Positions 611 to 23,122 of a stretch of DNA of 64,000 nt are shown piece by piece; the first letter of the stretch is position 1, and every line of letters starts with the position of its first letter. Under the pieces are notes generated by a model. That model ran no database searches. It was not told the DNA's origin and saw only the letters and a program-made list of their open reading frames with translations. This DNA comes from Gammaproteobacteria bacterium (GTDB lineage Bacteria > Pseudomonadota > Gammaproteobacteria > Eutrophobiales > Eutrophobiaceae). The stretch spans positions 3,936,001 through 4,000,000 of the forward strand of contig OZ220696.1 of NCBI GenBank assembly GCA_965116495.1, in the 5' to 3' direction. The position numbers and the translations under genes were made by a program.

Positions 611-714
611 TAGGCCATTCTTGTCCGGCAACCCGGCAACAATGGTTTATAACTTTATGATATATTGGGTTTTGGCCGCATCAAGGTTTTTATTTTAGGC
701 CGACGCACTATTAT
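611..714. promoter_or_regulatory. Divergent LLM/tetR control region with two operator-like sites
   Basis: TAGGCCA at 611, TAGGCCG at 696 followed by TATTAT at 709, and IHF-like TAACTTTATGATA at 650-662. Confidence 0.55.
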
Positions 715-769
715 TCGCAAGCATTTTTCGAGTATCATGCAACATCATGGGCGGATAAATACCGATATA

Positions 770-1405
770 ATGAACGCAGAACAACCGGAAAAACCGGACA
801 AGCCACAATCGAACAATAAAGTCACCGGGACCAAGGGGCAGAAGCGCCGCCAGCAGATCATTGACGCGGCGAAGCAGGCCCTGATAGAGGGTGGCGCGAA
901 CAGCCTGGTCCTGCGCGATGTCGCGGACCAGATTGGTATCACCCACGGCAATCTTCAATATTACTTCCCCACGAAAAACGATCTGCTGATAGCGATATTC
1001 GACCAGGCGGTAGAGAAATACACGGAGAGCATGAAGGTGGCAGTCTCCGAAACGTCCACCAGCAAGGGCAGGCTGGATGCCATCATCGATGCCGGTATCG
1101 CCGAGTTGAAAGCGCCCGAAACCGCGTTATGGCGCATGATGATGTCCCTAGCGGACCACAACACGGACATGGCCTCGATTTTGAAGAAGGAAAACGACCT
1201 GTATGAACAGGTCGTGGCGGAGGAATTGGAGTTAATTTCTCCAGGGCTGTCTATTCAACGCAGGCGCCATATCGCCCGGATCATCCACGCCATACTCGAC
1301 GGACTCGGCATCCAGTTCTCCTATGAAGATGCGGAAGGCCCGGAGATGCGGGCGCTGGCCAGCGAGATTAAGATAGCGTTATTCGCCATGCTGCAGGCGA
1401 GTTAG
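770..1405 (+). CDS. TetR/AcrR family transcriptional regulator
   Basis: N-terminal HTH (IIDAAKQALIEGG..LRDVADQIGITHGNLQYYFPTKNDL). Start moved from TTG 665 to in-frame ATG 770. Confidence 0.92.
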   Translation: MNAEQPEKPDKPQSNNKVTGTKGQKRRQQIIDAAKQALIEGGANSLVLRDVADQIGITHGNLQYYFPTKNDLLIAIFDQAVEKYTESMKVAVSETSTSKGRLDAIIDAGIAELKAPETALWRMMMSLADHNTDMASILKKENDLYEQVVAEELELISPGLSIQRRRHIARIIHAILDGLGIQFSYEDAEGPEMRALASEIKIALFAMLQAS

Positions 1406-2193
1406 CGTTTGCTAATCATAAACGAACGTAATTCTTCGGTAGTGTATGTCTTCTCTACTTTGCCGTAATTCAGCTCAGCATTGGCGCGGCCGTATTCGAA
1501 AGAAATCAACTCTTTGACGGGTAACATGGAATCGGAATGCGCGCCGAACTGCAGGTTCCCCGAACCGGTATAGACTTCTGCCTTCCCGTCCGAACCAATG
1601 ATCGGGTTGACCTGGTAGTTCAGTGTAACCATCTGTGCCAGAATTGGTAATTGCCCTCCTTCTGCGTCCGGTATAACGCGCAGACAGATAAGGGGTACCG
1701 CATCTCCGTCACTTGCCAGTTCATTCCTTGCCGGTTTCATCATGGCCCGGATGGCCCGGTCGTCAGGTTTGACATCCATCACTGCCTCTACATGACCGTC
1801 GCTGTGCTTGATAACGTCGATCCGGTGGGCGCGTTTTTTGCCAAATCCGTACAGTTCACGATCCACAATCTGTGAGGTTTCACTGGTACAGTACACCCCC
1901 GCCAGGTAGCCGTGGACTTTGCCTTGCCATTCACACAGGATACCGGTAAACACCTCGTTGTAGGCCCCTACAGTGCTCCAATGATTTCTCTCGATCACCA
2001 TGAATGCAGTGGCAGGTTCATGGAGTGAGAGAACGGGAGGCAGGATGTCAAGTATGGCGTCATCCTCAGTCTTCCAGGTGACGGTAACGGCTTCAAAATC
2101 GCGGAAATAGTAGGGACCTCTATGCACAGAAGGGCTGTGTAGAGGTGCGAATGCGCCCCATTTGTCAAAAGTGAGTCGTCCGGGTTTTGGCAT
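1402..2193 (-). CDS. Acetoacetate decarboxylase-like (ADC superfamily) protein 1
   Basis: GPYYFRD and DRELYGFGKK (Schiff-base Lys motif), LRVIPD..LAQ; paralog of 5494 and 7756. Confidence 0.85.
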   Translation of the reverse strand: MPKPGRLTFDKWGAFAPLHSPSVHRGPYYFRDFEAVTVTWKTEDDAILDILPPVLSLHEPATAFMVIERNHWSTVGAYNEVFTGILCEWQGKVHGYLAGVYCTSETSQIVDRELYGFGKKRAHRIDVIKHSDGHVEAVMDVKPDDRAIRAMMKPARNELASDGDAVPLICLRVIPDAEGGQLPILAQMVTLNYQVNPIIGSDGKAEVYTGSGNLQFGAHSDSMLPVKELISFEYGRANAELNYGKVEKTYTTEELRSFMISKR

Positions 2194-2218
2194 TGTATTA
2201 TTCTCGCAGGGTTGTCAG

Positions 2219-4465
2219 CTAAATTTGTGTTATCCGAACCGGAATAGCGTTCAGTACTGCTGTCCCGGATAAAGTATCCAGGTTCATGTCGTCTACCAGT
2301 ACATTCATGTTTGACCCCGGTTTCTGCCGGGCGATGTTCAAGCGCATACCTTCCCTGTTGTGTCCCCATCCATGAGGCATACTCACGACTCCCGGCATGA
2401 TATCTTCGGTAATCTCAACAGGTATTTCGATCTCCCCGGTATTTGTGCTCAATCTGGCCGGCCTGCCGTCATCCAGGGACAGCCGCTGCGCATCTTCCGG
2501 ATGAACCTGCAGGGTGCAACGGGATTGACCTTTCGCCAGAATATCAACGTTGTGACCCCATGAGTTGATACTGCGCAAATGCCGGCGTCCGATTAGTAAT
2601 AGTTCTTCCCCGGAAGGGTGTTGCAGCGGCGCCTGAAGCAATGTGCGGGCTTCTTCCATGAAGGCTGCGGGAGCCATCTCAATTTTTCCGTTGGGTGTGC
2701 GCAATACTTCGGGTAAGCGCGGTTGTAAAGCGCCAAAATCAACCCCGTCAGGTTTGGAAATTATTTTTTCCAGTGTTATACCGTCCGGGTTCGCGCCAAA
2801 TCCATCGCCATAGGGGCCGACTCTGAACCCGGCGTCCAATACCCGTTCCACACCGCGCTTGCCTGAGAGCCGGCTCATTGCAGAGGGAATATCAATACCG
2901 TGAGCTATGGAATACTCATCAGCCGCCGCTTCGGCGATAATTTCACTGATCATCCGGTCCTCCATTTCCTGTAAACCTTGTTCGTCCTGAACCCCAAGCC
3001 CGGCTGCTATAGCGCTGATTTGCAGTAATACATCCCAATCCGATACCCACTCCGCGGGTGACGTGAACAGGGCAGGGGAGAACCGGACAACATTCCGCAC
3101 TGCATACATGGCCGAAAAACTCCCGTAGTAGCATGTTTCGAAAGTAGGGGTTCCCGGCAGGATTACATCGGCATGGCGCGAGGTTTCGTTGATATAAATA
3201 TCCAGCGACAGGAAAAAATCCAGTCGGGACAGCGCCTTGTCCAGGCGTTCCGGGTTCGGGGCACTGGATACCGGATTTCCGCACATGGTAACCAGGGCGC
3301 GGATTTGTCCATCTCCAGGTGTTTCAATTTCTTCAGCCAGACAGGCAACCGGCAATTCACCACAGGTCGGCGGCATGTTGCGAACACGGCTACGGAACGT
3401 GGATTTGGGTAGCGGTTCACCTGTACCCGGTTTACCCTTTGTGTTGGCAGCAAACGATGGCGCCTTGGCAAACATCATACCGCCGGGTTTATCAAGATTG
3501 CCGGTCACGATGTTAATGACTTCAATTAACCAACTGGTAACCGTACCGTACTTCTGCGTGGTGGAGCCGACCCGGCCGTAAACGCCTGCTCTTTCCCTTG
3601 TCGCCAGTTCATGGGCGATTGTTTCAATGGATAAGGCATCTATCCCGCAGTTGGCCGACATTTGTTCCAGGGAAACCAGTTTTGCCAACGCTTCTATCGT
3701 ATCCAGGCCTGATATGAACGGGGCGATAGCGGCTGTTTTCGACAACCGGTCACGAAATATGACATGCAGCACGGCCAACAGGAAATACTGGTCCTGTCCC
3801 GGGCGAATGAACAAATGCCGGTCGGCAATTTTTGCCGTCTCAGTACGGCGAGGGTCCACAACAACCAACTTGCCGTTGCGCTTTTTCAAATCCCGCGCAC
3901 GTTTCCTGAAATTGGTTGCCAGCCATAAACTCCCGTTGGAAATTTCCGGGTTTGCACCGATGATGAGCAGGTAGTCAGTGCGGTCTATATCGGGTACGGG
4001 GTTGGTGGACTCATCACCATACATTTCGGTGCAAGTGAGTATCTTCGGGAGTGCATCGACAGAGTTGGCCGTATACAGATGAGGCGTAGCAAGGGCTTCG
4101 TACAGAAACAGAAAGCCGGTATTAAAAGCTGCGCTGCGTAAAGTGGCATTACCCACGTACAGGGCAACAGACTCCTTACCATATCGTTGTGTTACGTCTG
4201 ACAGTTTTTCATCGATAACCGCAAAGGCTTCATCCCAGCCGGCAGGCACAAGCTTGCCGTTTTTTCGCACCATTGGTGTCCTTAGCCGGTCCGGGTCATC
4301 TCCCAGTTCCATTAGTGCCACACCTTTAGGACAGACATGTCCCAGGGTCATCAGATCATTGTTATTGCCACGAATGCTGACTACCTTATTTTCTTCGAGC
4401 GTAAGTTCCAGCCCACAGATGGCTTCACAATTCGGACAGATGTAGTAGCTCTCCCGGCGGGACAT
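2219..4465 (-). CDS. Molybdopterin-dependent oxidoreductase (DMSO reductase superfamily, cytoplasmic, N-terminal 4Fe-4S)
   Basis: CPNCEAICG..CPKG, DPDRLRTPM, VVVDPRRTETA, HADVILPG, C-terminal PGVVSMPHGWG. No Tat signal. Confidence 0.9.
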   Translation of the reverse strand: MSRRESYYICPNCEAICGLELTLEENKVVSIRGNNNDLMTLGHVCPKGVALMELGDDPDRLRTPMVRKNGKLVPAGWDEAFAVIDEKLSDVTQRYGKESVALYVGNATLRSAAFNTGFLFLYEALATPHLYTANSVDALPKILTCTEMYGDESTNPVPDIDRTDYLLIIGANPEISNGSLWLATNFRKRARDLKKRNGKLVVVDPRRTETAKIADRHLFIRPGQDQYFLLAVLHVIFRDRLSKTAAIAPFISGLDTIEALAKLVSLEQMSANCGIDALSIETIAHELATRERAGVYGRVGSTTQKYGTVTSWLIEVINIVTGNLDKPGGMMFAKAPSFAANTKGKPGTGEPLPKSTFRSRVRNMPPTCGELPVACLAEEIETPGDGQIRALVTMCGNPVSSAPNPERLDKALSRLDFFLSLDIYINETSRHADVILPGTPTFETCYYGSFSAMYAVRNVVRFSPALFTSPAEWVSDWDVLLQISAIAAGLGVQDEQGLQEMEDRMISEIIAEAAADEYSIAHGIDIPSAMSRLSGKRGVERVLDAGFRVGPYGDGFGANPDGITLEKIISKPDGVDFGALQPRLPEVLRTPNGKIEMAPAAFMEEARTLLQAPLQHPSGEELLLIGRRHLRSINSWGHNVDILAKGQSRCTLQVHPEDAQRLSLDDGRPARLSTNTGEIEIPVEITEDIMPGVVSMPHGWGHNREGMRLNIARQKPGSNMNVLVDDMNLDTLSGTAVLNAIPVRITQI

Positions 4466-4481
4466 GGACAGAAATCATCAG

Positions 4482-5363
4482 TTAAATTGATGAAACGAAA
4501 TCCAGGTATTGTTCGGCTAACCTGTTTAACAGACTTTCGACCTCGGCTGCAGATGTTGCAAAGTGCAAAAGGACGAGTTCGTCGACACCCAGTTCCCTGT
4601 ATTCCTCAATCATTTCGTGGTCATAGTCATGTCCATAGGGACAGGCATAAACCTTAATCTCTTCTCTTGGCCGGTTCGCCTCAACAAGCGCGGCTTCCAG
4701 GTCCGCGATTTGCGGAGCCAGTTGTTCGGGATTGGCGCCGATGGCAAACCAGCCCTGGCACTGGTCTGCAACGCGCCTGAAACTGGGTTTACTGTTACCG
4801 GCAAAAATAATGGGCGGGTGGGGCGTTTGAACGGGCTTCGGATAGAAGCTGCAGGGGCGTAAGTCATAAAATTCATCATGGTATTCAGAGACAGGGTCGC
4901 ACCACAGGCGTTTTATCACCTCGATATACGAACGGGATCGCGCCCCGCGCTGTTCATAGGTGGCGCCGACAGCTTCAAACTCCTCTCTCTGCCACCCCAG
5001 CCCGACGCCGAGTTCCAGGCGCCCGTTTGAAAGCCAATCCACGTTTGCCGCTTCTTTTGCCGTGTAAACCGGATTGCGTTGCGGCAGCACGATGACAGCG
5101 GTGCCCAGCCGTATTCTGTCAGTGATCGAGGCAAGGTAAGCCAGGGAAGTGAATGCATCGAGTTCAGCATTATCGGCAGCTTCTTCGTACTCCATCCTGC
5201 CATCTTCGTATACGGGAAAGTTCGGATCGTAATCATCCACCATCACAACATGCTCACCGACCCACAGCGAGTTAAAACCCAGTTTCTCCGCAGTCGTTCC
5301 AAGCGCGCGCAGAAACTCCGGGGTTGCGGTAAGGTTAAGCGGGACCAGTACGCCTAATTTCAT
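4482..5363 (-). CDS. LLM-class probable F420-dependent oxidoreductase (Rv2161c-type)
   Basis: LWVGEHVV, RIRLGTAVIVLPQRNP, LSNGRLELGVGLGW, PKPVQTPHPPI. Confidence 0.9.
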   Translation of the reverse strand: MKLGVLVPLNLTATPEFLRALGTTAEKLGFNSLWVGEHVVMVDDYDPNFPVYEDGRMEYEEAADNAELDAFTSLAYLASITDRIRLGTAVIVLPQRNPVYTAKEAANVDWLSNGRLELGVGLGWQREEFEAVGATYEQRGARSRSYIEVIKRLWCDPVSEYHDEFYDLRPCSFYPKPVQTPHPPIIFAGNSKPSFRRVADQCQGWFAIGANPEQLAPQIADLEAALVEANRPREEIKVYACPYGHDYDHEMIEEYRELGVDELVLLHFATSAAEVESLLNRLAEQYLDFVSSI

Positions 5364-5493
5364 GGTTTATTCCCCCGATTTCCGCCAGGTGGCGTTCGAA
5401 GCCTGAAACAGCGGAAAAATACCCGGTACATGTTAACTCGAACCACCGTGTGGTCCGGGCCCATGTTCGTGTTACCGGCGGTTGCGCTCTTTC

Positions 5494-6249
5494 TCAGTAG
5501 GTCTTGAGAATTTTCCCGTAGGGCAGGTCGGCCGTCATCCTGACATATTTGGCGTCGACAATCTGCACTACCGGCAGATTCACATCGGATATTCTGTCAA
5601 CTTCCAGTGATGCCGAACCGTTGTATAACTCGTCCTTGCCATCAGGGCCCTTGTGGGGGACGCCGGTAAACAACACCGAGTTCAACTGCGCCACGGCGGG
5701 CGTATCGCTGCCCTCGACATCGGGTATGACTTTAAGGACCGCGAGCGGCAGTGCCGCCAGTTCCGAAGCGGGCAGGTTTCTATCCGGGAAGAAAAAGGTT
5801 TTGGCGACTATGTGGCCCGGTTTGACCTCTACAACACCCTCGATCTCACCGGTCCCGTGCTTGATCAACTCGATACGGTGGGCGAGTTTTTTTCCGAAAC
5901 CCCAGACTTCCCGGCCTATGATGAGGGCATTTTCCGTCGTCACGTATACGGCGTTGGTGTAACCGTATACCTGGCCTTCATGCATACACAGGATCCCGGT
6001 GTACACCTCGCCGTAAGGGCCGCCACTGGTACTGATATTATTGACTTCCAGCACCATGAACGCGGTTGCAGGTTCAATCAGTTCAAGCTCCGGCGGCATG
6101 ATATCAAGTGCCGCATCTTCATCGGTCAGGTAGGTAATCACCAGCGCTTCGGTATCGCGGTAATACCAGGGGCCTTTCTTATAAGAAGCATTGTGTGCGG
6201 GCATTGTTGAGCCCCATTGATCGGGTGTCAGTCTTCCCATTTTTGCCAT
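5494..6249 (-). CDS. Acetoacetate decarboxylase-like protein 2
   Basis: GPWYYRD, GREVWGFGKK, LKVIPD..VAQL; RBS GGAG upstream. Confidence 0.88.
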   Translation of the reverse strand: MAKMGRLTPDQWGSTMPAHNASYKKGPWYYRDTEALVITYLTDEDAALDIMPPELELIEPATAFMVLEVNNISTSGGPYGEVYTGILCMHEGQVYGYTNAVYVTTENALIIGREVWGFGKKLAHRIELIKHGTGEIEGVVEVKPGHIVAKTFFFPDRNLPASELAALPLAVLKVIPDVEGSDTPAVAQLNSVLFTGVPHKGPDGKDELYNGSASLEVDRISDVNLPVVQIVDAKYVRMTADLPYGKILKTY

Positions 6250-6334
6250 GATGATAATCTCCGCTGTTTCTTTGTCCTTTATGGGGAAAGAATGTGAGTC
6301 TTCAAAATAAATTATATTTGATAAAGCGTTGGTG

Positions 6335-6478
6335 AGTATAGGCCAAATTATTTATTTTTGCAAATCGTCCAGCAAATGAGTTAACCTACTGAATAGTATA
6401 TTAAATCATCGATTTTATAGTGTTAATTATGTAAATTATCATAAGATACCTATATTTAAATTAGGCCAATGGCATAAT
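6335..6478. promoter_or_regulatory. Divergent promoter cassette with paired operators
   Basis: Minus-strand TTGCAA-17-TATACT (6363..6335); TAGGCCA at 6339; TAGGCCAATGGCATA at 6462; IHF-like TAACCTACTGAAT at 6382. Confidence 0.7.
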
Positions 6479-6539
6479 AATATTCATTATCCACAGGACG
6501 CTGGTCAATCAGCCGGTGCATGTATAGTTAAAAACGATA

Positions 6540-7697
6540 ATGCAGCATTCCAGTAAAAATTCTGATATTGCCTTAATAATTGCGGTCGCGGCCGGGACAT
6601 ATATCAGTATCACCTCGTCTAATTTCTCCCCGCTTTTAATCGGCATATTAGCGGATTCAGACATAGTAGCTGAAATTACCGGAGCCTATATTTTAGCACT
6701 TGAAATTTGTGCCATCCCTGTTGCGACGCTCGTAGTATTGCCTTTCATACAGCATGTTAATCGGCAAAGGTTAGCAATTGCAGGTGTTGTGTTCGCTACG
6801 ATTGCTCAATTGATCAGTCCGTTTTTCCTGGAGAATTATGAGCTCTTTATAACACGTTTTTGTGTTGGGCTTGGGCTGGGTTGTGTTTATGCCGCGGTCA
6901 ATTCAGTAGGCGCAACTTCCGAATATCCAGATAAGGTATTTGGCTATTCAACAGCTATTACATTTCTCCTGTACGCAATTACGCAACCACTGATGTCCAT
7001 GGTCATCGGGAGTTTTGGGTTTGGCGGTGCATGTATCTTTCTTACGGTAGCAGGATTGATTTCTCTGCTGTTTATTCGCAACTTTCCCAGTGAACCCAGC
7101 ATAGTCAAACAGCAAAAAATAGAGGTGCATTGGCGCTATTACATTGCCTTACTGATTACAATTATATTAATTAATCTTGCCGCCGGTACAACCTGGGCAT
7201 TTGTGGAAAGAGTAGGAGTTAGCAGGTTTGGATTGGATATTGAAATAATTGGTTTGATTCTCGGGATAGGAACAGCAGCCGGGGTAGTGGGGGCTTATTC
7301 AGCTTCATGGGCTTATACCCACCTGGGTCGCATAAATTCAATATTGTTTGGCTTGGTCTTGTTTGGAGCGACAAGTTACGGGATCACAAATTCAACTACA
7401 ATACCAGTCTATACCGGCAGTATAATTCTTTACTGGTTTATCTATCTGTTTCTTTATCCACTACTGTTCAGCGCTGCTGCTGAGCTGGATCGTTCCGGAC
7501 GTCTGGCTACCATTACCGGCGGTTTATTATGGCTTGCTGTTGGCATCGGACCTGCGGTTGGCGGACTGATTGCTTCTCGATATAGCTACGGCATGCTTGG
7601 ATGGTTCAGTTTTTTCTGTTGCGTTCTAGCAGTGCCTTTTTTCTATAGGGTAGGCCGGTACTTGGAGACCCGTTATGAAAGCTCTTCAAAAGCTTGA
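6540..7697 (+). CDS. MFS transporter
   Basis: About 12 hydrophobic segments and an RFCVGLGLG MFS-type motif; visibly AT-richer than its neighbours. Confidence 0.85.
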   Translation: MQHSSKNSDIALIIAVAAGTYISITSSNFSPLLIGILADSDIVAEITGAYILALEICAIPVATLVVLPFIQHVNRQRLAIAGVVFATIAQLISPFFLENYELFITRFCVGLGLGCVYAAVNSVGATSEYPDKVFGYSTAITFLLYAITQPLMSMVIGSFGFGGACIFLTVAGLISLLFIRNFPSEPSIVKQQKIEVHWRYYIALLITIILINLAAGTTWAFVERVGVSRFGLDIEIIGLILGIGTAAGVVGAYSASWAYTHLGRINSILFGLVLFGATSYGITNSTTIPVYTGSIILYWFIYLFLYPLLFSAAAELDRSGRLATITGGLLWLAVGIGPAVGGLIASRYSYGMLGWFSFFCCVLAVPFFYRVGRYLETRYESSSKA

Positions 7698-7755
7698 GTT
7701 TTTTACCTTTGGTCAAGCGGACTACGAAAGGATAAAACAGGTGGTATTCAGTCCG

Positions 7756-8589
7756 TCAGCGAATCGCCCTTATTGCCTGTATGTTCCCCGCTGAGGCCTC
7801 TACCTCTGCAGCTTCGAACTCTTCCGCCGTGTAGGTCTTCAGGATCTTCGGGTACTCCAGCACGGAGTCATAGCGCGAAAATTTGAACGATGCAACACCG
7901 CGAATGGGCAACTGAAGGTCGGACGGCCACCCGAAGGCGAGATGTCCGGGGCCGCTATAGACCATGGCACGGCCCTGCGCATCAACGTGAGGATGGACCG
8001 GATACGGCTGAGAGACGAGTTGCGCCAAGGCAGGACGGTCTCCACCCTCAGAATCAGGGAATGTCTTGAGAAATATCATCGGAATAGACTGGTGCGCGCC
8101 CAGTGCTTCGGCCGACTCGTGCGTAGCCGGCCGCATTACGGCACATGCTGCCCGGTCACCGTTCTTGATCTCCATGATCGCCTGGATGTCTCCATCCTCG
8201 TGCTGAGTAACCTCGATGCGCTCAGCGGTCTTCTTGCCACATCCAACGATTTCCCGGGCAACCACCCGGGAAGCGACGCCGCTCGTGTACACGGCAGGGA
8301 TGTAACAGCAGTCTTCTCCCTGCCACTTGCACATGATGCCCATGTAGGCCTCGCTATAGGGCCCCAGCGTCGTCCAATGGTTGTCCGCAATTGAGACGAA
8401 TGCCGTCGCCGGCTCGACAAGCTCGAGATCGGGAGGCATGAGGCTGCGCGCCGCATCCTCGTCTGTTTCAAATTCAATGATGATCCCTTCGGTGTTGATA
8501 TAATACCAGGGACCCTTGGATGCACAGGAGTCATGAACCGGCGAGAATGGACCCCACTTGTCCAGCGTAAGCGTACCCGTTTTACCCAT
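7756..8589 (-). CDS. Acetoacetate decarboxylase-like protein 3
   Basis: Start moved to ATG 8589 (RBS GGGGAG; MGKTGTLTLDKWG aligns with paralogs); AREIVGCGKK motif. Confidence 0.85.
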   Translation of the reverse strand: MGKTGTLTLDKWGPFSPVHDSCASKGPWYYINTEGIIIEFETDEDAARSLMPPDLELVEPATAFVSIADNHWTTLGPYSEAYMGIMCKWQGEDCCYIPAVYTSGVASRVVAREIVGCGKKTAERIEVTQHEDGDIQAIMEIKNGDRAACAVMRPATHESAEALGAHQSIPMIFLKTFPDSEGGDRPALAQLVSQPYPVHPHVDAQGRAMVYSGPGHLAFGWPSDLQLPIRGVASFKFSRYDSVLEYPKILKTYTAEEFEAAEVEASAGNIQAIRAIR

Positions 8590-8625
8590 CTTTCTTATCT
8601 CCCCTGTTGATTGAGGTAAGTATGG

Positions 8626-8654
8626 AATATAGGCCATTGGCCGGGTCTTATCAA
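8626..8654 (-). promoter_or_regulatory. sigma70 promoter overlapped by operator
   Basis: Minus-strand TTGATA-17-TATATT; TAGGCCATTGGCCGG at 8630. Confidence 0.65.
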
Positions 8655-8750
8655 GTCGCAACATTGTTGATGCCAGGTCCGTTGCTTATAATGTTAATAA
8701 AACTGAACAAACTGTTCGCAGTAACATAAGACTTTTGGAAAGGTATTATT

Positions 8751-9545
8751 ATGCATATTGATCTGAGTGATAAGCGTGCGCTGGTTACTGGAGGAGCTTC
8801 AGGTATTGGCGCTGCGATTGCCGAAGTATTTGCTGACTCGGGGGCACATGTCGCCGTTCATGCCCGTACCCTTGCGAAAGCGGAAGCAACTGTAGAACAG
8901 ATTAAGGCGGGTGGCGGGCAGGCCTTTGCTGTTGAAGCCGACCTGACCGACCCGGCGGCTATCGAAGCCATGTGTGATGCCGGGGTCAAGGGACTCGGCG
9001 GCATCGACATCGTCATGAATAATGCCGGCCTGTATATCCCGGAAGCAATGGTGGAAAGTGACATCGATACCTGGCGCAGGACCATGGCGGTCAACCTGGA
9101 AGCGCCGCAACTCATCACCAGGATTACGCTTCAAACCATGATCGAACAGGGCACGGGGGGAAGGCAGTTATATGTCTCGTCGGTAAGCGCAATCATGGCG
9201 GAAGTGCTGGGTAGCCCTTATTGCGCTTCCAAGGCAGGGCTGAATGCCCTGGTCCGATGCCTGGCCGTAGAAGTCGGCCAATACGGCATAACCGCAAACA
9301 GCATCAACCCCGGCTGGGTGGATACGCCTATGGCGAGGAAGGCGTTTGAGGATATGAAGGAAGAAGGGCAGACGCTTGAAGAGATAATTGAAGAGAGTAT
9401 GAGTGATAATACCCTTGGTGTTGTCATCAAGCCGGCGGATATTGCCGCCATGGCGGCCTATCTCGCCAGTGAGCATGGTCGTTGTATTACCGGGCAGGAT
9501 ATCAATATCTGCGCCGGCTTGAGCCTCGTACGCTACGGAGACTGA
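8751..9545 (+). CDS. Short-chain dehydrogenase/reductase
   Basis: TGGASGIG, NNAG, YCASK. Confidence 0.93.
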   Translation: MHIDLSDKRALVTGGASGIGAAIAEVFADSGAHVAVHARTLAKAEATVEQIKAGGGQAFAVEADLTDPAAIEAMCDAGVKGLGGIDIVMNNAGLYIPEAMVESDIDTWRRTMAVNLEAPQLITRITLQTMIEQGTGGRQLYVSSVSAIMAEVLGSPYCASKAGLNALVRCLAVEVGQYGITANSINPGWVDTPMARKAFEDMKEEGQTLEEIIEESMSDNTLGVVIKPADIAAMAAYLASEHGRCITGQDINICAGLSLVRYGD

Positions 9546-9560
9546 TTACAACGTATAGTT

Positions 9561-9627
9561 GGGGTCAGAGTAAAATCTTGAAGAACATTGCCGGTGGCAG
9601 GGTCAAGGGTGATTTTACTCTGACCTC
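9561..9627. repeat. REP-like inverted pair, family A (GGGGTCAGAGTAAAA...TTTTACTCTGACC)
   Basis: Inverted repeat; the same unit recurs at 35343-35425. Confidence 0.75.
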
Positions 9628-9644
9628 GAGTATTATCCCCTGTT

Positions 9645-9673
9645 CGTCATTCCGGGCTTGACCCGGAATGACG
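9645..9673. repeat. REP-like hairpin, family B (GTCATTCC...GGAAT)
   Basis: Perfect 12-bp stem CGTCATTCCGGG/CCCGGAATGACG between convergent genes; related to 52667 and 55068. Confidence 0.75.
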
Positions 9674-9714
9674 ACATAAACAGTGCGACGCTATTTATGT
9701 CGTTATGTATAGAA

Positions 9715-10860: not shown

Positions 10861-10904
10861 TTCAACCAGTATCCCGGTTCAGGACTACACAGTTCCGGAG
10901 CGCC

Positions 10905-11249
10905 TTAACGCCATTCCACCGGTTTATCCGATACCAGCATGGTGATGTCTTCAAAGTCATCGCTCATTTCGAAATCGATAGTAGTCCCTTCTTCAACATA
11001 CAGGATGTCGCCTACGCCTATCGAAAAGTTCTCACCTCCATGGACATTGACTTTGGCGGAACCCTTGAGTACGAAGGCAAATTCGTCAAAGGGGTAGGTA
11101 AAGGTGTGTTTTCCGGCTTCCTTGAAAGCAACGACTGCCCGTGTCTTGTCGGCTGACCGGTAGAAAACATGTTCCCCGCCGCCGAATTCCGGTGTCAGTT
11201 CCCAATCAACGTCTTTCATGTTAAAGCGTAAGGCTTTTGGTGTGTTCAT
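10905..11249 (-). CDS. Cupin (EutQ/DUF861-like)
   Basis: YPFDEFAFVLKG..GDILYVEEG. Confidence 0.8.
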   Translation of the reverse strand: MNTPKALRFNMKDVDWELTPEFGGGEHVFYRSADKTRAVVAFKEAGKHTFTYPFDEFAFVLKGSAKVNVHGGENFSIGVGDILYVEEGTTIDFEMSDDFEDITMLVSDKPVEWR

Positions 11250-11410
11250 GCTTCACTCCCATTTTAACTTGTCTTTTTTTCATCATGCTTCGTTGGGTTT
11301 CCTCATTCGGTCGGTCATGTACATAAGTACACTCCCTCCCTCTCTCGTCGCCCGCCTCGCCTGATGAAAAAAATCCTGCGTTAAAATTCTCAAAATAAAT
11401 CGGTAACAAT

Positions 11411-13369
11411 CTATGTATTTATTATTTCCATAACCTGTAGCGCCGCGCGCTCCCCATGTTCAACTGCGCCAAACCACTCCTGGATGCCCTTGTGTTCCGA
11501 GTGACCAAAGGCAATACGCCCGAATGGCCTGGTAATAACCTGCTGCAGGGCCGGCTTGCCATCGTTACCATGGAATAATCCCGGGACTGCAGCGACATAG
11601 GAGTGGCCCCAGCGGTTCACGATAATGCCGGCGATATCTTTTTCATCATCGAAACCCAGCGGGCCAAACATGGTGGTCAACTGTCGGCGCACCGACGCTT
11701 CGATATCGGCATAGCTTTTTGACATCAGTTCCCATCTTATTGCCGCCGCTTGTTCCTTTGCAGGTAATCCCGGTTTGGTAAACCCGGCATAAAAGGTCAG
11801 GACAACCGGTTTTTCGGGGTTGAGCGGGGGCTGGTTGTCACCAAAAACCAACGGCCGCCTGATATTGCAGAATCCGCCAAGGCCATTGTCCGTGAAGAAA
11901 TGACAGGCACTCACCCCTAATTTTGCCATTGGCTTCCAGTTCCTGAGCGCTACATTGATGATCATGTTGGAACCATAAACCATTTGACCGAAAGCATCTT
12001 CATATGCGCCGGGCAGGTCCTGGATAATATGCTTGTTTACCCAGCCGCCAATAGCAGACACGGCGCCTTTGGCCCTGACACGATAGACTTTGCCATCCTG
12101 TTGATAATAGACCGTAACACTCTCTGCCCTGGCCGGGTCACCATCATGCTCGACACGAACAGCTGTAGCGTTTAAACGGATTCTCACCGGGTTGCCCGGG
12201 TTATCAAAATTATCAAACCGATATGCCGAATCATGAATCTCTGCAAAGCGCGTCCCCCCTGAAATCGCGTTCGGCAACACCTTCTTCAGCATGAGACGAT
12301 AGATCGCATCGTTGCCTCCGGGGAACGAGAAAATGCCGGCAACCTCCTTGTCATCAGAAGGCACCCGGTACAGTGATTTGTCACCGAAGCCTTTATCAAA
12401 CCCCGGTAATGCAGACATCATTGCGTAGCGAGCGGAAATTGCATCGCAACCCATCCCCGAGGTGGTAGAGAGGGTTATGGACAGCAGTTTGATTACACGG
12501 GGTTGAATCTGGAGGACGTCTTCCAGATATTCCCGGTAGGTGATACTGTCCAGCCACTGCGACCAGTCGTCTCCGGCTTTATTGACGCCGGTTCCCTCAC
12601 GCAGGCGCTTCAGGTCCGCTTTCTCAGCCGCTGAAAAAGCCGTGTTTGCATAAGCATTCTGACTTGAATCCCTGTCCCAGTAGGATTCCTCCAGACCGAA
12701 GGTCTCGTCGTCAAAGAAGTAACCCGCGCTAGCCGCCTGTTCGGCAATGCCCAGCATAGGCAGGTAATTTGTCGGAGATAATCTCAGATCACCCTTGTAG
12801 CCTTCCAGGGTCTGGAATTCCGGGTGGCGCGGGATTTCCAAATCATTAAACAACTCGTCATACCAGTCACCCTTGACAGCGGGAACCACGGTAAGGTTCG
12901 ACCCTTGCGGACCGGTGATTTTATAGCCGTCGACGATAAATTCGTTACGCTTTGCTTCGCCGCCCGGAAGGGCGTGGTTTTCCAGGATAAGGCACGTTTG
13001 TCCCGGCCTGGATTCCTTCAGGAATGTGCGGGCGGCCGACAAGCCGGCGAAACCACCGCCGATGATGACAAGATCGTATGCTTCTCCGGTGTCGACCGCA
13101 CCACGCAGTATCCCGTCAATTTGTTTGTCACGTATCAGGTGGGCGGCGCTGGTGGTATTGTCAGTGTTGCCGTTTGCGCGGGCGTAATCGCCGACACCGG
13201 CATAGCCGTCCCAGGGGTGAACCGTTTCCGCGTGATGTTGTGCTGCTGTATCGCCCGGCCTGGCTGTGGCCGTATTGGGCGCCGGCATGCTCAACAGCAT
13301 GGCGCCGGAACCGATCAGCGTTCCTTTGACGAAGTCACGGCGGGTAATATCGCTGTCATATTTCCTCAT
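11411..13369 (-). CDS. Tat-exported FAD-dependent oxidoreductase, spermidine dehydrogenase (SpdH)-like
   Basis: ITRRDFVKG twin-arginine signal, IIGGGFAGL, LENHALPGGEAKRNEF, FPGGN, IVNRWGHSY. Confidence 0.8.
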   Translation of the reverse strand: MRKYDSDITRRDFVKGTLIGSGAMLLSMPAPNTATARPGDTAAQHHAETVHPWDGYAGVGDYARANGNTDNTTSAAHLIRDKQIDGILRGAVDTGEAYDLVIIGGGFAGLSAARTFLKESRPGQTCLILENHALPGGEAKRNEFIVDGYKITGPQGSNLTVVPAVKGDWYDELFNDLEIPRHPEFQTLEGYKGDLRLSPTNYLPMLGIAEQAASAGYFFDDETFGLEESYWDRDSSQNAYANTAFSAAEKADLKRLREGTGVNKAGDDWSQWLDSITYREYLEDVLQIQPRVIKLLSITLSTTSGMGCDAISARYAMMSALPGFDKGFGDKSLYRVPSDDKEVAGIFSFPGGNDAIYRLMLKKVLPNAISGGTRFAEIHDSAYRFDNFDNPGNPVRIRLNATAVRVEHDGDPARAESVTVYYQQDGKVYRVRAKGAVSAIGGWVNKHIIQDLPGAYEDAFGQMVYGSNMIINVALRNWKPMAKLGVSACHFFTDNGLGGFCNIRRPLVFGDNQPPLNPEKPVVLTFYAGFTKPGLPAKEQAAAIRWELMSKSYADIEASVRRQLTTMFGPLGFDDEKDIAGIIVNRWGHSYVAAVPGLFHGNDGKPALQQVITRPFGRIAFGHSEHKGIQEWFGAVEHGERAALQVMEIINT

Positions 13370-13426
13370 CTGCAACCACCTGTATGAACTACTGCATGAT
13401 AATCATTAACTGAAGTAAGCGGCAAT

Positions 13427-13466
13427 AAAAAAAGCCATGACACACTCCTTGTGCCATGGCTTTTTT
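13427..13466 (-). terminator. Intrinsic terminator between the TonB receptor and the SpdH-like gene
   Basis: A7-GCCATG...CATGGC-T6 hairpin, with a U-tract on both strands. Confidence 0.75.
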
Positions 13467-13548
13467 GCTGTGTAACTTCCGGGGGCAGAATTAATCCTGT
13501 CCCCGGCAACGTGCAATATACCAATTCCCGTCTGTCACTGATATGTCA

Positions 13549-15708
13549 TCAGAAGCTATATCCGATGCTTCCACCAACCCAACGTTTAGGGGCAAAAACG
13601 TCCTCTCCGGAACCAAAGAACAGGCTTGCGTCAACCCCGAAGGTTCGATACTCTTCATCGGTCAGGTTATTAACAAAAATGGCCGCGCTCCAGGCCTCAT
13701 CACCGCTCGTGAAATCCAGTCTGGCGTTTACTATGCCATAAGAACTTTCAGTGACAATTTCGGATTCAGATAAATTAAATTTTTGGTCATCAGTCCAACG
13801 AAAATCCCCTTGCAGCGCCAGTTGCCCACCAAAAGCAGACCACGAATAACGCACCAGGCCATTAAAAGTAACGTCAGGCGCTAATGGCGCTTTTTCTTTT
13901 CCGGTTGGGTAAGTTTGGGCAGGAGCGAAAGTGACAGGGTCCAAGGAATTAAAATCGGTAGGCAGGCCGGTTATCTCGGTGTCACTGAAAGATGCCCCCA
14001 GCAGAATATCCAGTCCCTCAACAGGATTCGCGACCAACTCAATCTCACCACCGTAGAATTCTGCTTCTGCATTGAACAGTAGTGCATTAAAGAAAGGATC
14101 GATGTTATAGGCTTGATAATCATCATAGTCATAATAATAAACCGATACATTCAGACGCGTGGTATCGCTTAAACTTGCTTTAAATCCTGCTTCGTACGAG
14201 GTGAGTACTTCACCACTGTAAGGTAAAACATCGCCGCTGACCGGCGTCAGTGGAAAATTAAAACCGCCGGACTTGATGCCCCGGTTCCAACCTGCATACA
14301 ACAACCAGTCATCATTCAGGTTATAGTCAAGCTGTACCTTTGCGTTAAAGTCGTCTTCATTAAGTGAGCCTGTGTAAGTCGGGAACCCGAAGTCAGGCGC
14401 AGTTAACGTATAGTCCTTATCGTCATCGTTGTAGCGCACACCGAGTATCAGGGCAAGTTGATCAGTAAGATCAAATTCTGTTTGCCCGAAAATCGCATAG
14501 GTTGTCGTGCTCTGAACGGCGAACTCATCGAAAATATCAGGACCAAAATAAAACAGCCCGGATTGCTCGGTGGAAAAATCGCCATCAATGTCTAAATAGT
14601 ACACACCAATGACAGAACGATGTCGTTCACCTTCCCAACTCAAACGAAGTTCCTGGGAAATTTGTTCAATATCAGCAGTCTGGGTGTAGTGGTAAACGCT
14701 GTCGGGTGTTGAGTCTGAATCTTCAGCGTAATCATGTTCAATATCCTGGTAATCAGTGATAGAGGTCACTGTAAAGCCACCAAGGTCCCAGCTGATTTTG
14801 CCATACAAATTGATGACTTCAGTCTTTTGATAAAAGTCGAAATCATTGGAAATGGTGTAAGGATTACCGTCTATTTCATCTACATAACCAAAAAAATCAG
14901 TTGCGTTATATGACGGCACATTTAACGTCCACCCATTTGGCGCAGCGTCTTCGTCCGCATATTGCGCTTTCAACAAGATGCTTAGCTCTTCAGAGGGTTC
15001 AATCAACAATTGTCCCCGCACCGCCCAATCATCAGCTTGCTGCGCATCGGTGCCAATGTCATTATCGAGGAGACCATCATCCTCGTTATAGACCATCGAC
15101 AGGCGACCCGAAACCTGGTCGGTCAGACCGCCACCTGCAGCAGCTTCAACCCGTCTACGTCCTTCTTCACCCAGGGTCACATCAACAAACCCCCCAAATT
15201 CCTGTGATGGTTTGGTGGTGATGTAATGTACCAACCCCCCCGTGGAGTTGCGCCCGAACAAGGTGCCCTGGGGGCCGCGTAAAACCTCTGCACGCTCGAC
15301 ATCGAACATGCTGAAGCGCGTAGTGACGTTAGAACTCTGGTAGGCCTCATCTATATATAAGGCAACCGGCGCTTCCTGATTCGCCGTGTAATCGTTTTGA
15401 CCAACACCACGAACGTTAAATGAGGCGATCGCACCGCCGCCATAACCGGATACTTCAAGGCCGGGAGTTTGCGCAATCAAATCATTGGATTCAACGAAAC
15501 CCAGCTTTCTCATTTGCGCACCACTGAAAGCCGTTACCGAAACACCGATGTCCTGCAGGTTCTGTTCACGTTTTTGTGCCGTGACTACGACTTCTTCCAG
15601 TACCGCGGCAAATAAAGTGCCTGATGCAAAAACAAGTACAAAAGCCGCTGAAATACAGGTGAACAAGCTTGACCGTAGAGGGACCAGTAATTCACGAGGA
15701 TTATTCAT
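13549..15708 (-). CDS. TonB-dependent receptor
   Basis: Signal peptide, LEEVVVTAQKR, EVLRGPQGTLFGRN, C-terminal Phe. Start moved to ATG 15708 (RBS GGAGAG). Confidence 0.93.
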   Translation of the reverse strand: MNNPRELLVPLRSSLFTCISAAFVLVFASGTLFAAVLEEVVVTAQKREQNLQDIGVSVTAFSGAQMRKLGFVESNDLIAQTPGLEVSGYGGGAIASFNVRGVGQNDYTANQEAPVALYIDEAYQSSNVTTRFSMFDVERAEVLRGPQGTLFGRNSTGGLVHYITTKPSQEFGGFVDVTLGEEGRRRVEAAAGGGLTDQVSGRLSMVYNEDDGLLDNDIGTDAQQADDWAVRGQLLIEPSEELSILLKAQYADEDAAPNGWTLNVPSYNATDFFGYVDEIDGNPYTISNDFDFYQKTEVINLYGKISWDLGGFTVTSITDYQDIEHDYAEDSDSTPDSVYHYTQTADIEQISQELRLSWEGERHRSVIGVYYLDIDGDFSTEQSGLFYFGPDIFDEFAVQSTTTYAIFGQTEFDLTDQLALILGVRYNDDDKDYTLTAPDFGFPTYTGSLNEDDFNAKVQLDYNLNDDWLLYAGWNRGIKSGGFNFPLTPVSGDVLPYSGEVLTSYEAGFKASLSDTTRLNVSVYYYDYDDYQAYNIDPFFNALLFNAEAEFYGGEIELVANPVEGLDILLGASFSDTEITGLPTDFNSLDPVTFAPAQTYPTGKEKAPLAPDVTFNGLVRYSWSAFGGQLALQGDFRWTDDQKFNLSESEIVTESSYGIVNARLDFTSGDEAWSAAIFVNNLTDEEYRTFGVDASLFFGSGEDVFAPKRWVGGSIGYSF

Positions 15709-15782
15709 TAAATTCTCTCCGGGTGATATGTAAGTTAAAGCCAAAATATTGATATTGCAGTCACTCAACAAAATATTCAGCG

Positions 15783-15926
15783 AGTATAGGCCAGAGTATA
15801 GTTTATTTCAACAATTGTTTAAAATTGATAAGTCATTAATATACAATGTATTAAACAATTTTAAATTAGAATTATCAAAAAACAGGATTTAACGATGGGA
15901 TTAATAATAGGCCAGCGGCTTATAGT
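15783..15926. promoter_or_regulatory. Divergent promoter cassette with paired operators
   Basis: Minus-strand TTGAAA-17-TATACT (15811..15783); TAGGCCA at 15787; TAGGCCAGCGGCTTA at 15908 running into TATAGT; IHF-like TAAGTCATTAATA at 15829. Confidence 0.7.
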
Positions 15927-16020
15927 TTTTACGCGTGAATGTTAAAAGGGAACGCGTAACGCCACATTTGTCGGTAATTTACTTGTCCTGAAGCCATAAA
16001 AAACCACCCGGGATAGCAGG

Positions 16021-18114
16021 ATGAAAACCATTCTCGTAACAATCATCGCATTCATGGTTACATTTCAAAAACCGGCTTTTGCTCTCGATACTGATCTGCC
16101 CGGTTATACCTATGAGCAGGCGCAACTGGGCAGGGCAGTCTATAAACAATCCTGTGAGTTGTGTCACGGGGCAAATTTAAATGATGGTTCGTCACCACCG
16201 ATTACCGGTGACCTTTTCTATAGTATATGGGGTGGACGTTCTGCAGGAGAGTTACTGCAGTATATTGAAACAGAGATGCCGACCGGTTCACCGGGAACAC
16301 TTGACAGTAAACAATACCGGCAAGTTCTGGCTTATATGTTCCAGGTGAGCGGTTTTCCTGCGAGGGATGGTGAACTGTCACAAAATCCGGATGAGTATGA
16401 TACTGCGCGTTTACCGATACCGTCCGGAGGCCGGATTTCTGCAGATATTGTCGCCATACCACCGCCACCCGATCCACGGGCGAACCCGCTTGATAAAATC
16501 ACAAGGGTAAGCAGTCAAACATTGGCGCAAGCGCCCGCCGGGGACTGGTTAATGTGGCGTCGAACATACGACGCAAAGGGCTTCAGTCCATTAAAAAATA
16601 TCAGCGCGAAAAATGTGACGGACCTGAAGGTGGCATGGGCATGGACAATGCCCGATGGCAGGAACATTTCAACACCATTAGTCCATGATGGGGTTATGTT
16701 CATGTATGGTGCGGGCAGCCTCGTGTATGCGTTTGATGCTGTTACGGGGGATATTCTTTGGCGTTATGAGAGGGAGAAGAAGTGGCACTCTCCACGTTCT
16801 TTTGGTCCGCGCGCCATATCAATTTATAACGACAAAATCATTCTGACCACCGATGACGGAAATATCGTCGCACTCAACGTAAAGACCGGCAAAGTCGAAT
16901 GGGATAAATCCGTATTAAGTGCTACCACCCTTTGGTTTTCCGCGGGTACCCTGGTTGCCGATGAAAAAATTCTCATCGGCACGGCTACTGCCAGCGCACC
17001 CGGCATGAACTTTATCGCAGCGTTTGATGTACATACCGGTGATGAATTATGGCGCTTCCATACCATCCCACAGGATGGACAGCAGGGTAGTGATAGCTGG
17101 AATGGGGTTGCAACAGGGCAACGCCAGGGTGCGGGCGTCTGGGTACCAGGTAGCTATGATCCGGAATCAAATCTGGTTTTCTTTGGTACCGGTAATACTT
17201 ACAGGCCACAACTTTTGAGAATATTGGCCGAAGGCGCCGCAAGCAATGATGGGCTTTACACCAATTCCACACTCGCGCTTGATATAGATAGCGGAAAACT
17301 GAAATGGCATTTCCAACATCTACCGAATGATCAATGGAATTATGATTGGGCCTTTGAACGAACAGTTGTGGTCTTACCTGTCAACGGAGTTCACAAAAAA
17401 GTGGTCATTACAGGCGGTAAGCAAGCCATTTTTGAAGCCTTGCAGGTTAGTAATGGTGAGTATCATTTCTCGATAGATACAGGTTTGCAAACTGTGATCA
17501 AGGCAATAGAGCCACTGACGGGCACTAAAAGAATAGCTGCGAATGTATTACCTGAAAAAAATCAAACGCGTTTTGTCTGCCCCGATTCCCTGGGGGCCAG
17601 GAACTGGCAGCCAACATCATTCAACAGTGAAACAAATACACTCTTCACGCCATATAGAGAGTCGTGCATGAAAATACGATCGCCATTATTACCCGGTGAT
17701 ACTCCGCACGGACTTTTTGGCCAGAAACCTTATCCGGCACCGGGTAGCGACGGTAACTTTGCCGGCCTGCGGGCTATAAACCTGGAAAGCCAGGAAATAT
17801 TGTGGTCAACCCGTAAACGGGCAGAGCTGAGTACCGGCGTATTGGCGACCGCGGGAGGGTTGATATTCTCGGGTTCGCGGGACCGGGTATTTTCTGCCTA
17901 TGATCAATCTGGTGGTACAGAATTATGGCAAGTTCGTCTCAATGGAGTTCCCAGCGGTGGCCCCATCAGTTTTATGGTAGAAGGTAAACAGTACATCGCG
18001 GTTACTACCGGTGACTCTGAAGGTTTCGGTGAATACAATTTGGGTGAAGGAGATCAAAATCCAAAAAAGAGCAGTGCAACTATTTGGGTATTTGAGTTAC
18101 GTGATTCCAGTTAG
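16021..18114 (+). CDS. Periplasmic PQQ-type beta-propeller dehydrogenase with N-terminal c-type cytochrome
   Basis: Sec signal, CELCH heme motif, WLMWRRTY..FSPL, STPLVHDG, YDPESNLVFFGTGN, GGPISFMVEGKQYIAV. Confidence 0.88.
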   Translation: MKTILVTIIAFMVTFQKPAFALDTDLPGYTYEQAQLGRAVYKQSCELCHGANLNDGSSPPITGDLFYSIWGGRSAGELLQYIETEMPTGSPGTLDSKQYRQVLAYMFQVSGFPARDGELSQNPDEYDTARLPIPSGGRISADIVAIPPPPDPRANPLDKITRVSSQTLAQAPAGDWLMWRRTYDAKGFSPLKNISAKNVTDLKVAWAWTMPDGRNISTPLVHDGVMFMYGAGSLVYAFDAVTGDILWRYEREKKWHSPRSFGPRAISIYNDKIILTTDDGNIVALNVKTGKVEWDKSVLSATTLWFSAGTLVADEKILIGTATASAPGMNFIAAFDVHTGDELWRFHTIPQDGQQGSDSWNGVATGQRQGAGVWVPGSYDPESNLVFFGTGNTYRPQLLRILAEGAASNDGLYTNSTLALDIDSGKLKWHFQHLPNDQWNYDWAFERTVVVLPVNGVHKKVVITGGKQAIFEALQVSNGEYHFSIDTGLQTVIKAIEPLTGTKRIAANVLPEKNQTRFVCPDSLGARNWQPTSFNSETNTLFTPYRESCMKIRSPLLPGDTPHGLFGQKPYPAPGSDGNFAGLRAINLESQEILWSTRKRAELSTGVLATAGGLIFSGSRDRVFSAYDQSGGTELWQVRLNGVPSGGPISFMVEGKQYIAVTTGDSEGFGEYNLGEGDQNPKKSSATIWVFELRDSS

Positions 18115-18141
18115 GAAATGATCTGTACAACTGTGTTAGTA

Positions 18142-18287
18142 AATATTAGGCCAACACATAGTATTTTACGAAAAAATTTACTAATTATATAACTATATGA
18201 TAAACATATAATAAATAAAAATATTAATAAGATTATATAACTCATAATATTAATATTTTGACTAATAATAGGCCATTATATTATAAT
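18142..18287. promoter_or_regulatory. Promoter cassette with paired operators
   Basis: TAGGCCA at 18147 and 18269; plus-strand TTGACT-18-TATAAT (18258..18287); IHF-like TAACTATATGATA at 18190. Confidence 0.7.
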
Positions 18288-23083: not shown

Positions 23084-23122
23084 TCAGGGTCCATGATAGA
23101 AGTGCCTGTCTGAACATCGCTT

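Follow-up and report, generated by a model that had tools for sequence, protein, structure and literature searches.

The DNA analysed here, referred to below as the window, is a stretch of 64,000 nucleotides (positions 3,936,001 to 4,000,000 of contig OZ220696.1, assembly GCA_965116495.1) from a member of the Gammaproteobacteria. Genomes and homologous loci carry the labels of this analysis (G### and L###, respectively); the window's genome, G000, is a single contig of 4.34 Mb with 55% GC. Bases 1-23,083 of the window are filled by a catabolic gene cluster, whose gene content may hint at an amine as its substrate. The genes include tetR (770-1405), two luciferase-like monooxygenases (LLM), a molybdopterin oxidoreductase, two short-chain dehydrogenases/reductases (SDR) and a Rieske oxygenase; further genes encode three acetoacetate-decarboxylase (ADC)-like proteins, an MFS transporter, a cupin, a spermidine-dehydrogenase-like flavoprotein and a TonB receptor; and the remainder are a pyrroloquinoline quinone (PQQ)/cytochrome c dehydrogenase, a glyoxalase-like gene, a class III aminotransferase and an aldehyde dehydrogenase. 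The cluster holds nine copies of the sequence TAGGCC. Comparison across genomes indicates that TAGGCC-RNY-GGCCTA is very likely the operator of the TetR-family protein encoded beside it. In one family of genomes, pairs of these sites are further held at a fixed distance around a predicted site for integration host factor (IHF).

The regulator and the nine sites are as follows, in window positions. T1 and T2 denote the sites of the tetR region, and A and B the two sites of the cassettes C1, C2 and C3.

770..1405, + strand: TetR-family regulator, 211 amino acids, with TetR_N and a BetI-type C-terminal domain (Pfam) and the recognition helix ITHGNLQYYF
611..625, + strand: T1, half-site operator located in the 5' leader of an LLM gene that runs leftward from its start at 580, with no -35 behind it; TAGGCCA invariant in 12/12 genus genomes
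696..710, + strand: T2, near-palindromic operator over the leftward TTGCGA-17-TAAAAT (720-692) and the rightward tetR -10 TATTAT (709-714)
6339..6353, + strand: A of C1, half-site in the spacer of the leftward TTGCAA-17-TATACT (6363-6335); downstream, an ADC-like gene ending at 6249 and beyond it the LLM, molybdopterin-oxidoreductase and ADC-like genes
6462..6476, + strand: B of C1, near-palindrome over the extended -10-like TGGCATAAT (6470-6478), before the MFS gene (6540-7697)
8630..8644, + strand: unpaired operator in the spacer of the leftward TTGATA-17-TATATT of an ADC-like gene (start 8589)
15787..15801, + strand: A of C2, half-site in the spacer of the leftward TTGAAA-17-TATACT (TonB receptor, SpdH-like oxidoreductase, cupin, Rieske oxygenase)
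15908..15922, + strand: B of C2, the top-ranked operator in the genome; its end falls in the -10 TATAGT that precedes the PQQ/cytochrome c dehydrogenase gene (16021-18114)
18147..18161, + strand: A of C3, half-site just past the stop of the PQQ gene, with no leftward gene and an eroded -35
18269..18283, + strand: B of C3, inside TTGACT-18-TATAAT (18258-18287), before the glyoxalase-like, class III aminotransferase, aldehyde dehydrogenase and SDR genes

A first-pass annotation of this DNA had listed these nine sites, and all are present, all on the + strand, that at 696 reading TAGGCCG. Its mismatch counts against a 15-bp palindrome were also borne out (one at 6462, two at 8630 and at 15908); just six places in the 4.34-Mb genome come within two mismatches, and these are three of them. 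The spacings of 123, 121 and 122 bp for three pairs were confirmed, and there is a fourth pair, 611/696, at 85 bp. The expected intergenic enrichment was found: TAGGCCA occurs seven times in the cluster's 1,963 intergenic bases, where its frequency in the rest of the genome would predict 0.07, site 8630 being excluded from this count as lying inside a crude open reading frame (ORF) call. The sites and spacing of the proposed operator pairs therefore stand, but the sites at 611, 6339, 15787 and 18147 are only left half-sites with 5-6 mismatches. We refer to these as type A; fuller operators, either type B or single, are found at 696, 6462, 8630, 15908 and 18269. The intact half is on the left in all nine.

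A matrix trained solely on homologous loci placed the fuller operators at ranks 1 (15908), 2 (6462), 3 (696), 5 (8630) and 11 (18269) in G000, and the half-sites at ranks 788, 1,714, 2,019 and 204,922. The matrix scan of G000 gave no second group of strong operator sites outside the cluster, and the predicted TetR regulon looks local to this one cluster. We note a further arrangement elsewhere in the genome, at G000:C1:3747056 and 3747149, where two TAGGCCA on opposite strands lie 93 bp apart in AT-rich DNA; both are poor matches to the full operator.

Promoters were identified as consensus matches. The four sigma70-like promoters of the first-pass annotation read exactly as given there, with the last TA of the operator forming the first TA of the -10, and 696 bears a fifth, the leftward TTGCGA-17-TAAAAT. 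In both types of site the operator occupies the -35/-10 spacer, with A sites on leftward promoters (mostly TTGCAA-17-TATAYT) and B sites on rightward ones (TAnnnT in 25/33). The operator thus overlaps predicted promoters, including that of tetR itself, where a bound dimer would be expected to block polymerase, by analogy with established TetR behaviour. The degenerate second half of the A sites is a conserved T-tract, WWTAGGCCRNYRYAWTGTTTT, seen in both Alpha- and Gammaproteobacteria. The operator at 8630 is kept in 6/6 genomes that have the MFS+ADC module; the rightward TTGTTG-17-TATAAT (8664-8692) of the neighbouring SDR gene has only a decayed site. A sigma54 -24/-12 promoter at the cassettes was considered and rejected: a simple pattern gave one match in 1-23000, at 8806, within the SDR gene.

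The operator was assigned by comparing loci that encode TetR homologues of 43-75% identity, drawn from genome and metagenome collections. Of 63 such loci 57 were counted, after dropping the near-duplicates L061, L094, L098, L119, L123 and L128; L125 and L127 were left out, their match being cut at the start. The search was unseeded, counting all perfect 6-N(0-14)-6 palindromes in the 57 loci. TAGGCC-N3-GGCCTA came first, with 38 copies in 33/57 loci against 0.06 expected, and with a spacer of 3 only. The homologous loci thus carry the motif as a full palindrome. Across 401 genomes of the phylum it occurs as five single copies, and 400 phylum genomes besides G000 contain no close homologue of the window's TetR (two distant matches).

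More distant TetRs give a similar picture. All 15 of those examined with about 30% identity, a different gene context and the recognition helix ITHGNLQYYF carry 2-5 TAGGCC upstream, against a background of 32/5,000 windows with at least two such half-sites, whereas 12/13 TetRs with a different recognition helix have no TAGGCC upstream. We count the 15 as one lineage because they are close kin and were found through the helix pattern. The presence of the pair pattern in 10/11 tetR-bearing congeners against 1/11 others (G004, where a GC-rich match looked by eye like chance) was rejected as evidence for the binder, because pairs and tetR share one cluster and are confounded. The first-pass proposal that the TetR at 770 reads the palindrome and represses these units is strongly supported by the cross-genome comparison, and we regard TetR binding and repression at the predicted operators as highly probable.

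The 15 distant TetRs (L079-L089 and L131-L134, from Ralstonia, Cupriavidus, Burkholderia and Paraburkholderia) have an arrangement of their own. Two or three asymmetric half-sites (TAGGCC-RNY-NNAACG-like) form direct repeats at a distance of 22 or 44 bp from one another. They lie before flavin oxidoreductase genes, some 300-490 bp upstream of the TetR match, and many of the tetR promoters also bear an overlapped ATAGGCCTAT. The direct repeats suggest phased binding of several dimers in a second regulon.

The protein itself is a TetR by several measures: the helix-turn-helix (HTH) domain PF00440 is above cut-off and the C-terminal TetR_C_6 domain is at its cut-off (Pfam); the predicted model is all-helical, with a predicted local distance difference test (pLDDT) score of 88, residues 1-19 being below 50; and Foldseek matches the model to TetR structures with template modelling (TM) scores of 0.52-0.76. 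The recognition helix is invariant in 33 homologues. The closest solved structures are 14-23% identical. Identity to the LuxR, SmcR and HapR structures is 16-18% and strong sites form no cluster elsewhere in the genome, which does not fit LuxR/HapR orthology with a global regulon. BetI, the choline-sensing repressor, shares the TetR_C_6 domain and is the best NCBIfam match, but the scores (63.2 against a cut-off of 201.3, and 54.9 against 118) are far too low for an orthologue and there are no bet genes among the targets annotated here. To judge by gene content only, an amine-type substrate might release TetR.

Four IHF-like sites were found in the window, on the - strand and at the distances from the first copy that the first-pass annotation had given.

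650..662, - strand: TATCATAAAGTTA, at +39 from T1; 11/13 columns invariant in 12 genomes
6382..6394, - strand: ATTCAGTAGGTTA, at +43 (C1)
15829..15841, - strand: TATTAATGACTTA, at +42 (C2)
18190..18202, - strand: TATCATATAGTTA, at +43 (C3)

The IHF consensus is WATCARNNNNTTR, with an A-tract arm and a DNA bend of more than 160 degrees (PMC8421141). Matches with at most one mismatch are present in 32-53% of intergenic regions, and because they are so common only the position of a match was counted. In the whole genome, 6/460 TAGGCCR have an IHF-like site at +38 to +45, and four of the six are the window sites.

The same is seen in related genomes. We define the family as the genus together with G437 and G438. 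Its long cassettes have a match to WATCARNNNNTTR with at most one mismatch, on the bottom strand at +41 to +44, in 32/33 cases, and its short units have one at +39 in 13/14. Among 29 genus cassettes, 22 IHF-like sites lie exactly at +43 against a mean of 0.28 per offset, and shuffles preserving composition gave 0.002-0.11 per cassette type. The host encodes both ihfA and ihfB, above the NCBIfam cut-offs. The motif is therefore conserved and fixed in position inside the family, but it is rare outside (2/36 pairs), so that the IHF site proposed for the cassettes is a property of the family. On these comparisons, IHF is quite likely to bind the predicted sites. The IHF-bearing loci fall in a single TetR clade (in a quick tree, with a group test that ignored ungrouped rows), implying one evolutionary origin seen in several paralogous copies.

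Spacing behaves in the same way. Cassettes were found through TAGGCC at both ends, and one that has lost a site escapes the count; in the genus listing, both sites are present in each expected region except one that is cut by a contig end. The family has 33 long cassettes, of which 31 span 119-123 bp and two 114 bp (standard deviation (SD) 2.1), and the T1-T2 distance is 85 bp in 13/14 short units and 86 bp in one. Outside the family, after dropping the 8/48 distant pairs that lay outside 80-145 bp, 36 pairs span 84-145 bp (SD 16.7). A pair by itself is not special, since outside the family it amounts to one operator per back-to-back promoter; what marks the family's cassettes is the fixed spacing with an IHF-like site. 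A search for a loose pair pattern over 81 family genomes returned mostly chance matches, with controls equally frequent. Between the IHF site and B, the DNA fails to align between cassette types (33/36 comparisons with z < 2); thus the length is kept and the sequence is not.

Two other spacings were observed. At L035:684-770 (G002), two A-type half-sites lie 86 bp apart upstream of a TonB receptor gene. At L093, L095, L096, L099, L102 and L130, all outside the family, the divergent glyoxalase/SDR region has operator pairs 84-87 bp apart and no IHF-like site, possibly a second constrained spacing.

Some type A sites are kept although they lack a promoter of their own. All 33 A sites in long cassettes are half-sites, with 5-7 mismatches. 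The site at 18147 was compared in six genomes with the tandem gene order (the C3 of G007 is outside this count, its contig ending upstream): 7/7 columns of the core and a further 4/4 at +11 to +14 are invariant, while the surroundings have drifted, with 1/6 columns invariant at the -35 position and 1/25 in the flank. A, the IHF site and the 122-bp spacing are kept with this tandem arrangement of genes in 6/6 PQQ-glyoxalase genomes, and independently at the MFS-glyoxalase junction of L154 (G437), with the IHF site at +43, 122 bp and no leftward -35. Site 611 has no TTG-type -35 at a spacer of 16-19 in any of 12 genomes, and in four of the 12 it is at most 10 bp from the start codon. From these patterns of conservation, A would probably act at a distance. 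A read-through roadblock could account for a lone half-site, but not for the fixed IHF position and length.

The cassettes also appear in more than one genetic context. In G000 it is the B side that drives the glyoxalase gene, in G014 and G002 the A side. Comparison within the genus also shows that the MFS+ADC and PQQ modules have come in or dropped out between cassettes, which implies duplication. With a gene served from either side and modules coming and going, the cassette is evidently reusable.

The reading that we favour, tentatively and without calling it probable, is TetR repression with an IHF-assisted loop between A and B. TetR on its predicted operator in the -35/-10 spacer would repress each cluster promoter; in the family, the predicted IHF bend would bring the upstream half-site A toward the main operator B; and A and B would cooperate in a looped complex. 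Contact between two TetR dimers is a step on which we are nearly evenly divided, leaning slightly to the negative. We take the bend centre to lie at the W of the IHF consensus, following the IHF crystal structure. On this assumption the arms of the short 85-bp unit measure 44 and 41 bp, over a total of 8.1 turns, and its near-equal arms are textbook loop geometry. As to the loop that the first-pass annotation had suggested, the fixed spacing, this near-symmetric unit and the promoterless half-sites speak for it; the asymmetric arms of the 122-bp unit, the lack of a shared helical phase and the homologous regulons with free spacing and no IHF speak against it. We consider it possible, though somewhat less likely than not, that one family of uncultured Gammaproteobacteria has converted an ordinary TetR regulon, with one operator per promoter, into a portable looped repressosome in which half-site, IHF site and full operator keep a fixed geometry, copied before each catabolic module and usable from either side.

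Several observations weigh against the loop. The arms of the long unit are 46-49 and 73-75 bp (66 in the 114-bp variants), lopsided for dimer-dimer contact, with A facing the DNA just upstream of the -35 of B; these lengths depend on the assumed position of the bend centre. No 10.5-bp phase is common to the lengths of 85, 114 and 119-123 bp, in a comparison that offers just two length changes of independent origin: a difference of 3.5 turns separates the 85-bp from the 122-bp unit, and the two 114-bp variants are 8-9 bp short, which is no full turn. Outside the family the pairs show no 10.5-bp phase (R = 0.15), and 2/36 of them have an IHF-like site at +38 to +45; no period of 10.0-11.0 bp was found among the distant pairs, and that of 11.5 bp had p ~0.05, uncorrected for four periods. 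The TetR subfamily thus uses free spacing without IHF, so that a loop is not needed for the regulator to work. The genomes are not independent; only the paralogous cassettes are. The two-half-site pair of G002, which was omitted from the counts, has no IHF-like site at +39, and the operator at 8630 has neither partner nor IHF site. Finally, TetR-family proteins are normally dimers (PMC3705450).

The asymmetry of the long unit is better accommodated if TetR represses the promoters independently and the IHF bend serves RNA polymerase, through upstream AT-rich contact or leftward stimulation, with A-bound TetR blocking the upstream contact. Measured from the assumed bend centre, A lies about 48 bp away and the DNA just upstream of the -35 of B about 50 bp away, which mirrors A more closely than B does (74 bp); A's degenerate half is the conserved T-tract; no TetR tetramer is required; and IHF does stimulate promoters, for example carAB P1 (PMC6524683). 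We nevertheless think this less likely than the loop, as the 85-bp unit does not fit it, its IHF site lying midway between the operators and downstream of the leftward start, and an IHF site 17-19 bp upstream of a -35 is not a habit of this genome (0, 1 and 2 cases against a mean of 2.1). Alternatively, TetR on half-site A could activate the rightward promoter across the IHF bend, with B repressing. Symmetric sites repress and half-sites activate in the case of LuxR (PMC3705450), which needs IHF at luxCDABE (10.1101/227371), and all 33 half-sites have their centres some 140 bp upstream of the predicted rightward start, with an IHF-like site between in 32. Such activation is improbable here, given that A mostly occupies the 17-bp spacer of a leftward promoter close to consensus, where a bound TetR should obstruct polymerase, and that the stronger site B overlaps the promoter to be activated. 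Both of these readings share with the loop the assignment of the operator to TetR, of which we are highly confident.

The remaining explanations do without a joint function of the pair, or without TetR. Divergent-promoter pairs at free spacing throughout the subfamily, the duplication implied by the mobile modules and the abundance of IHF-like matches would all suit two back-to-back promoters with their own operators, the spacing and the IHF-like site being relics of duplication. This is very improbable: the cassette middles are no more alike than shuffles in 33/36 comparisons, yet length and IHF position are kept, and A shows no change even where the -35 and flanks around it have decayed. The motif might instead have another reader, namely a different regulator, a GGCC methyltransferase switch, or a recombinase acting on direct repeats, as the intact half on the same side in all nine sites, the gain and loss of genes between cassettes and the GGCC in the core might suggest. 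But the palindrome is full in homologous loci, the half-site tracks the TetR helix, and the motif is nearly absent from the 401 phylum genomes, which apart from G000 lack a close homologue of this TetR. Apart from one large cluster of shadow ORFs left uninterpreted, the homologous loci showed no other recurrent regulator or recombinase family, in a comparison with no search aimed at methyltransferases. We give another reader hardly any credence. H-NS counter-silencing was set aside, as PF00816 was not found in G000 in a search limited to H-NS among silencers.

In known systems, Tn10 TetR and SimR (PMC3241653) share with the present case an HTH repressor beside its targets, a 15-bp palindrome over promoters, autoregulation, two operators of unequal strength and a disordered basic N-terminal arm; SimR, like the pairs outside the family, has one operator per back-to-back promoter. 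They differ in that here five promoter regions of a 22-kb catabolic cluster are involved, the operator ends in the TA of the -10, and there is a fixed IHF-like site with a fixed 85- or 122-bp spacing. SmcR with IHF at Vibrio vvpE, reportedly the subject of a published study, belongs to a second group. The Vibrio regulators LuxR, HapR and SmcR are likewise of the TetR family, with IHF-bent DNA and a proposal of looping (PMC3705450, PMC2677876, 10.1101/227371), and two classes of site, symmetric and asymmetric, are described for LuxR and HapR (PMC3705450, PMC2677876). As described there, however, they are global quorum-sensing regulators without a known ligand and use IHF to activate, whereas the present regulator is local, with its strong sites all in one cluster and half-sites in promoter spacers. 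At E. coli carAB P1 (RutR, IHF, PepA and PurR), a TetR-family protein and IHF again join in a higher-order promoter complex, and IHF potentiates repression at a distance; it differs in having one RutR site, activation by RutR, wrapping of DNA by PepA, and no operator pair (PMC6524683).

The architecture itself resembles the repression loops of lac, gal and phage Mu, the last being an O1-IHF-O2 operator loop. As in these, two operators lie at a constrained distance with a predicted bending site between them, a weak auxiliary beside a strong operator. The repressors of those loops are of different families, with known oligomer contacts, and the loops are single loci rather than a cassette at several promoters. 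Effects of IHF on phage Mu Pe (PMC3820752) and repression looping at gal (PMC6524683) are documented. The literature searched gave no description of this operator or of a natural IHF-assisted TetR repression loop, although regulon databases or supplementary tables could hold the motif. A literature match to RalT (PMC12928067) was rejected, as it is through primer sequences only.

The assignment gives an operator to a widespread uncharacterised TetR subfamily and outlines a catabolic regulon that occurs in Alphaproteobacteria, Gammaproteobacteria and other groups. Even where overall identity is about 30%, the half-site goes with the recognition helix, providing a clean pair for a protein-DNA code. 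The family cassette offers a natural before-and-after comparison of the recruitment of an architectural protein, with free spacing without IHF on one side and fixed spacing with it on the other. A loop of this kind, if real, would be a natural case of IHF-assisted repression in which a local TetR-family repressor closes the loop, and would extend repression looping to a family usually treated as independent dimers; if it is not, what remains is a well-supported ordinary TetR regulon with an IHF-tuned promoter.

Orthologues of tetR (86-97% identity) occur in 11/22 congeners, and the cluster and sites are conserved there. More widely, the families ADC-like or cupin, SDR, TonB receptor, glyoxalase-like, class III aminotransferase, LLM and aldehyde dehydrogenase are each found in 30-56 of 62 homologous loci, a recurrence that points to an uncharacterised pathway; the literature searched, supplements being outside the search, gave no description of the gene cluster. 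The flavoprotein at 11411-13375 (- strand) has SpdH structures as its sole solved relatives (E ~2e-54) and a twin-arginine-like N-terminus. Contigs of a related strain, from four metatranscriptome runs of a single study, span portions of most genes in the cluster; these contigs carry no information on starts, strand or level. They skip 1524-4476, in agreement with the gene order of G015 and G022, which are without the molybdopterin oxidoreductase and most of one ADC-like gene.

Past the last intact gene of the cluster, 23080-23500 holds a broken SDR gene (fragments with an in-frame stop), and 23688-24120 a truncated extracytoplasmic function (ECF)-type sigma gene, with region 2 only; a hairpin repeat comes after it, at about 24093-24120. 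G022 has this element inserted between the counterpart of the 8630 operator and the SDR gene.

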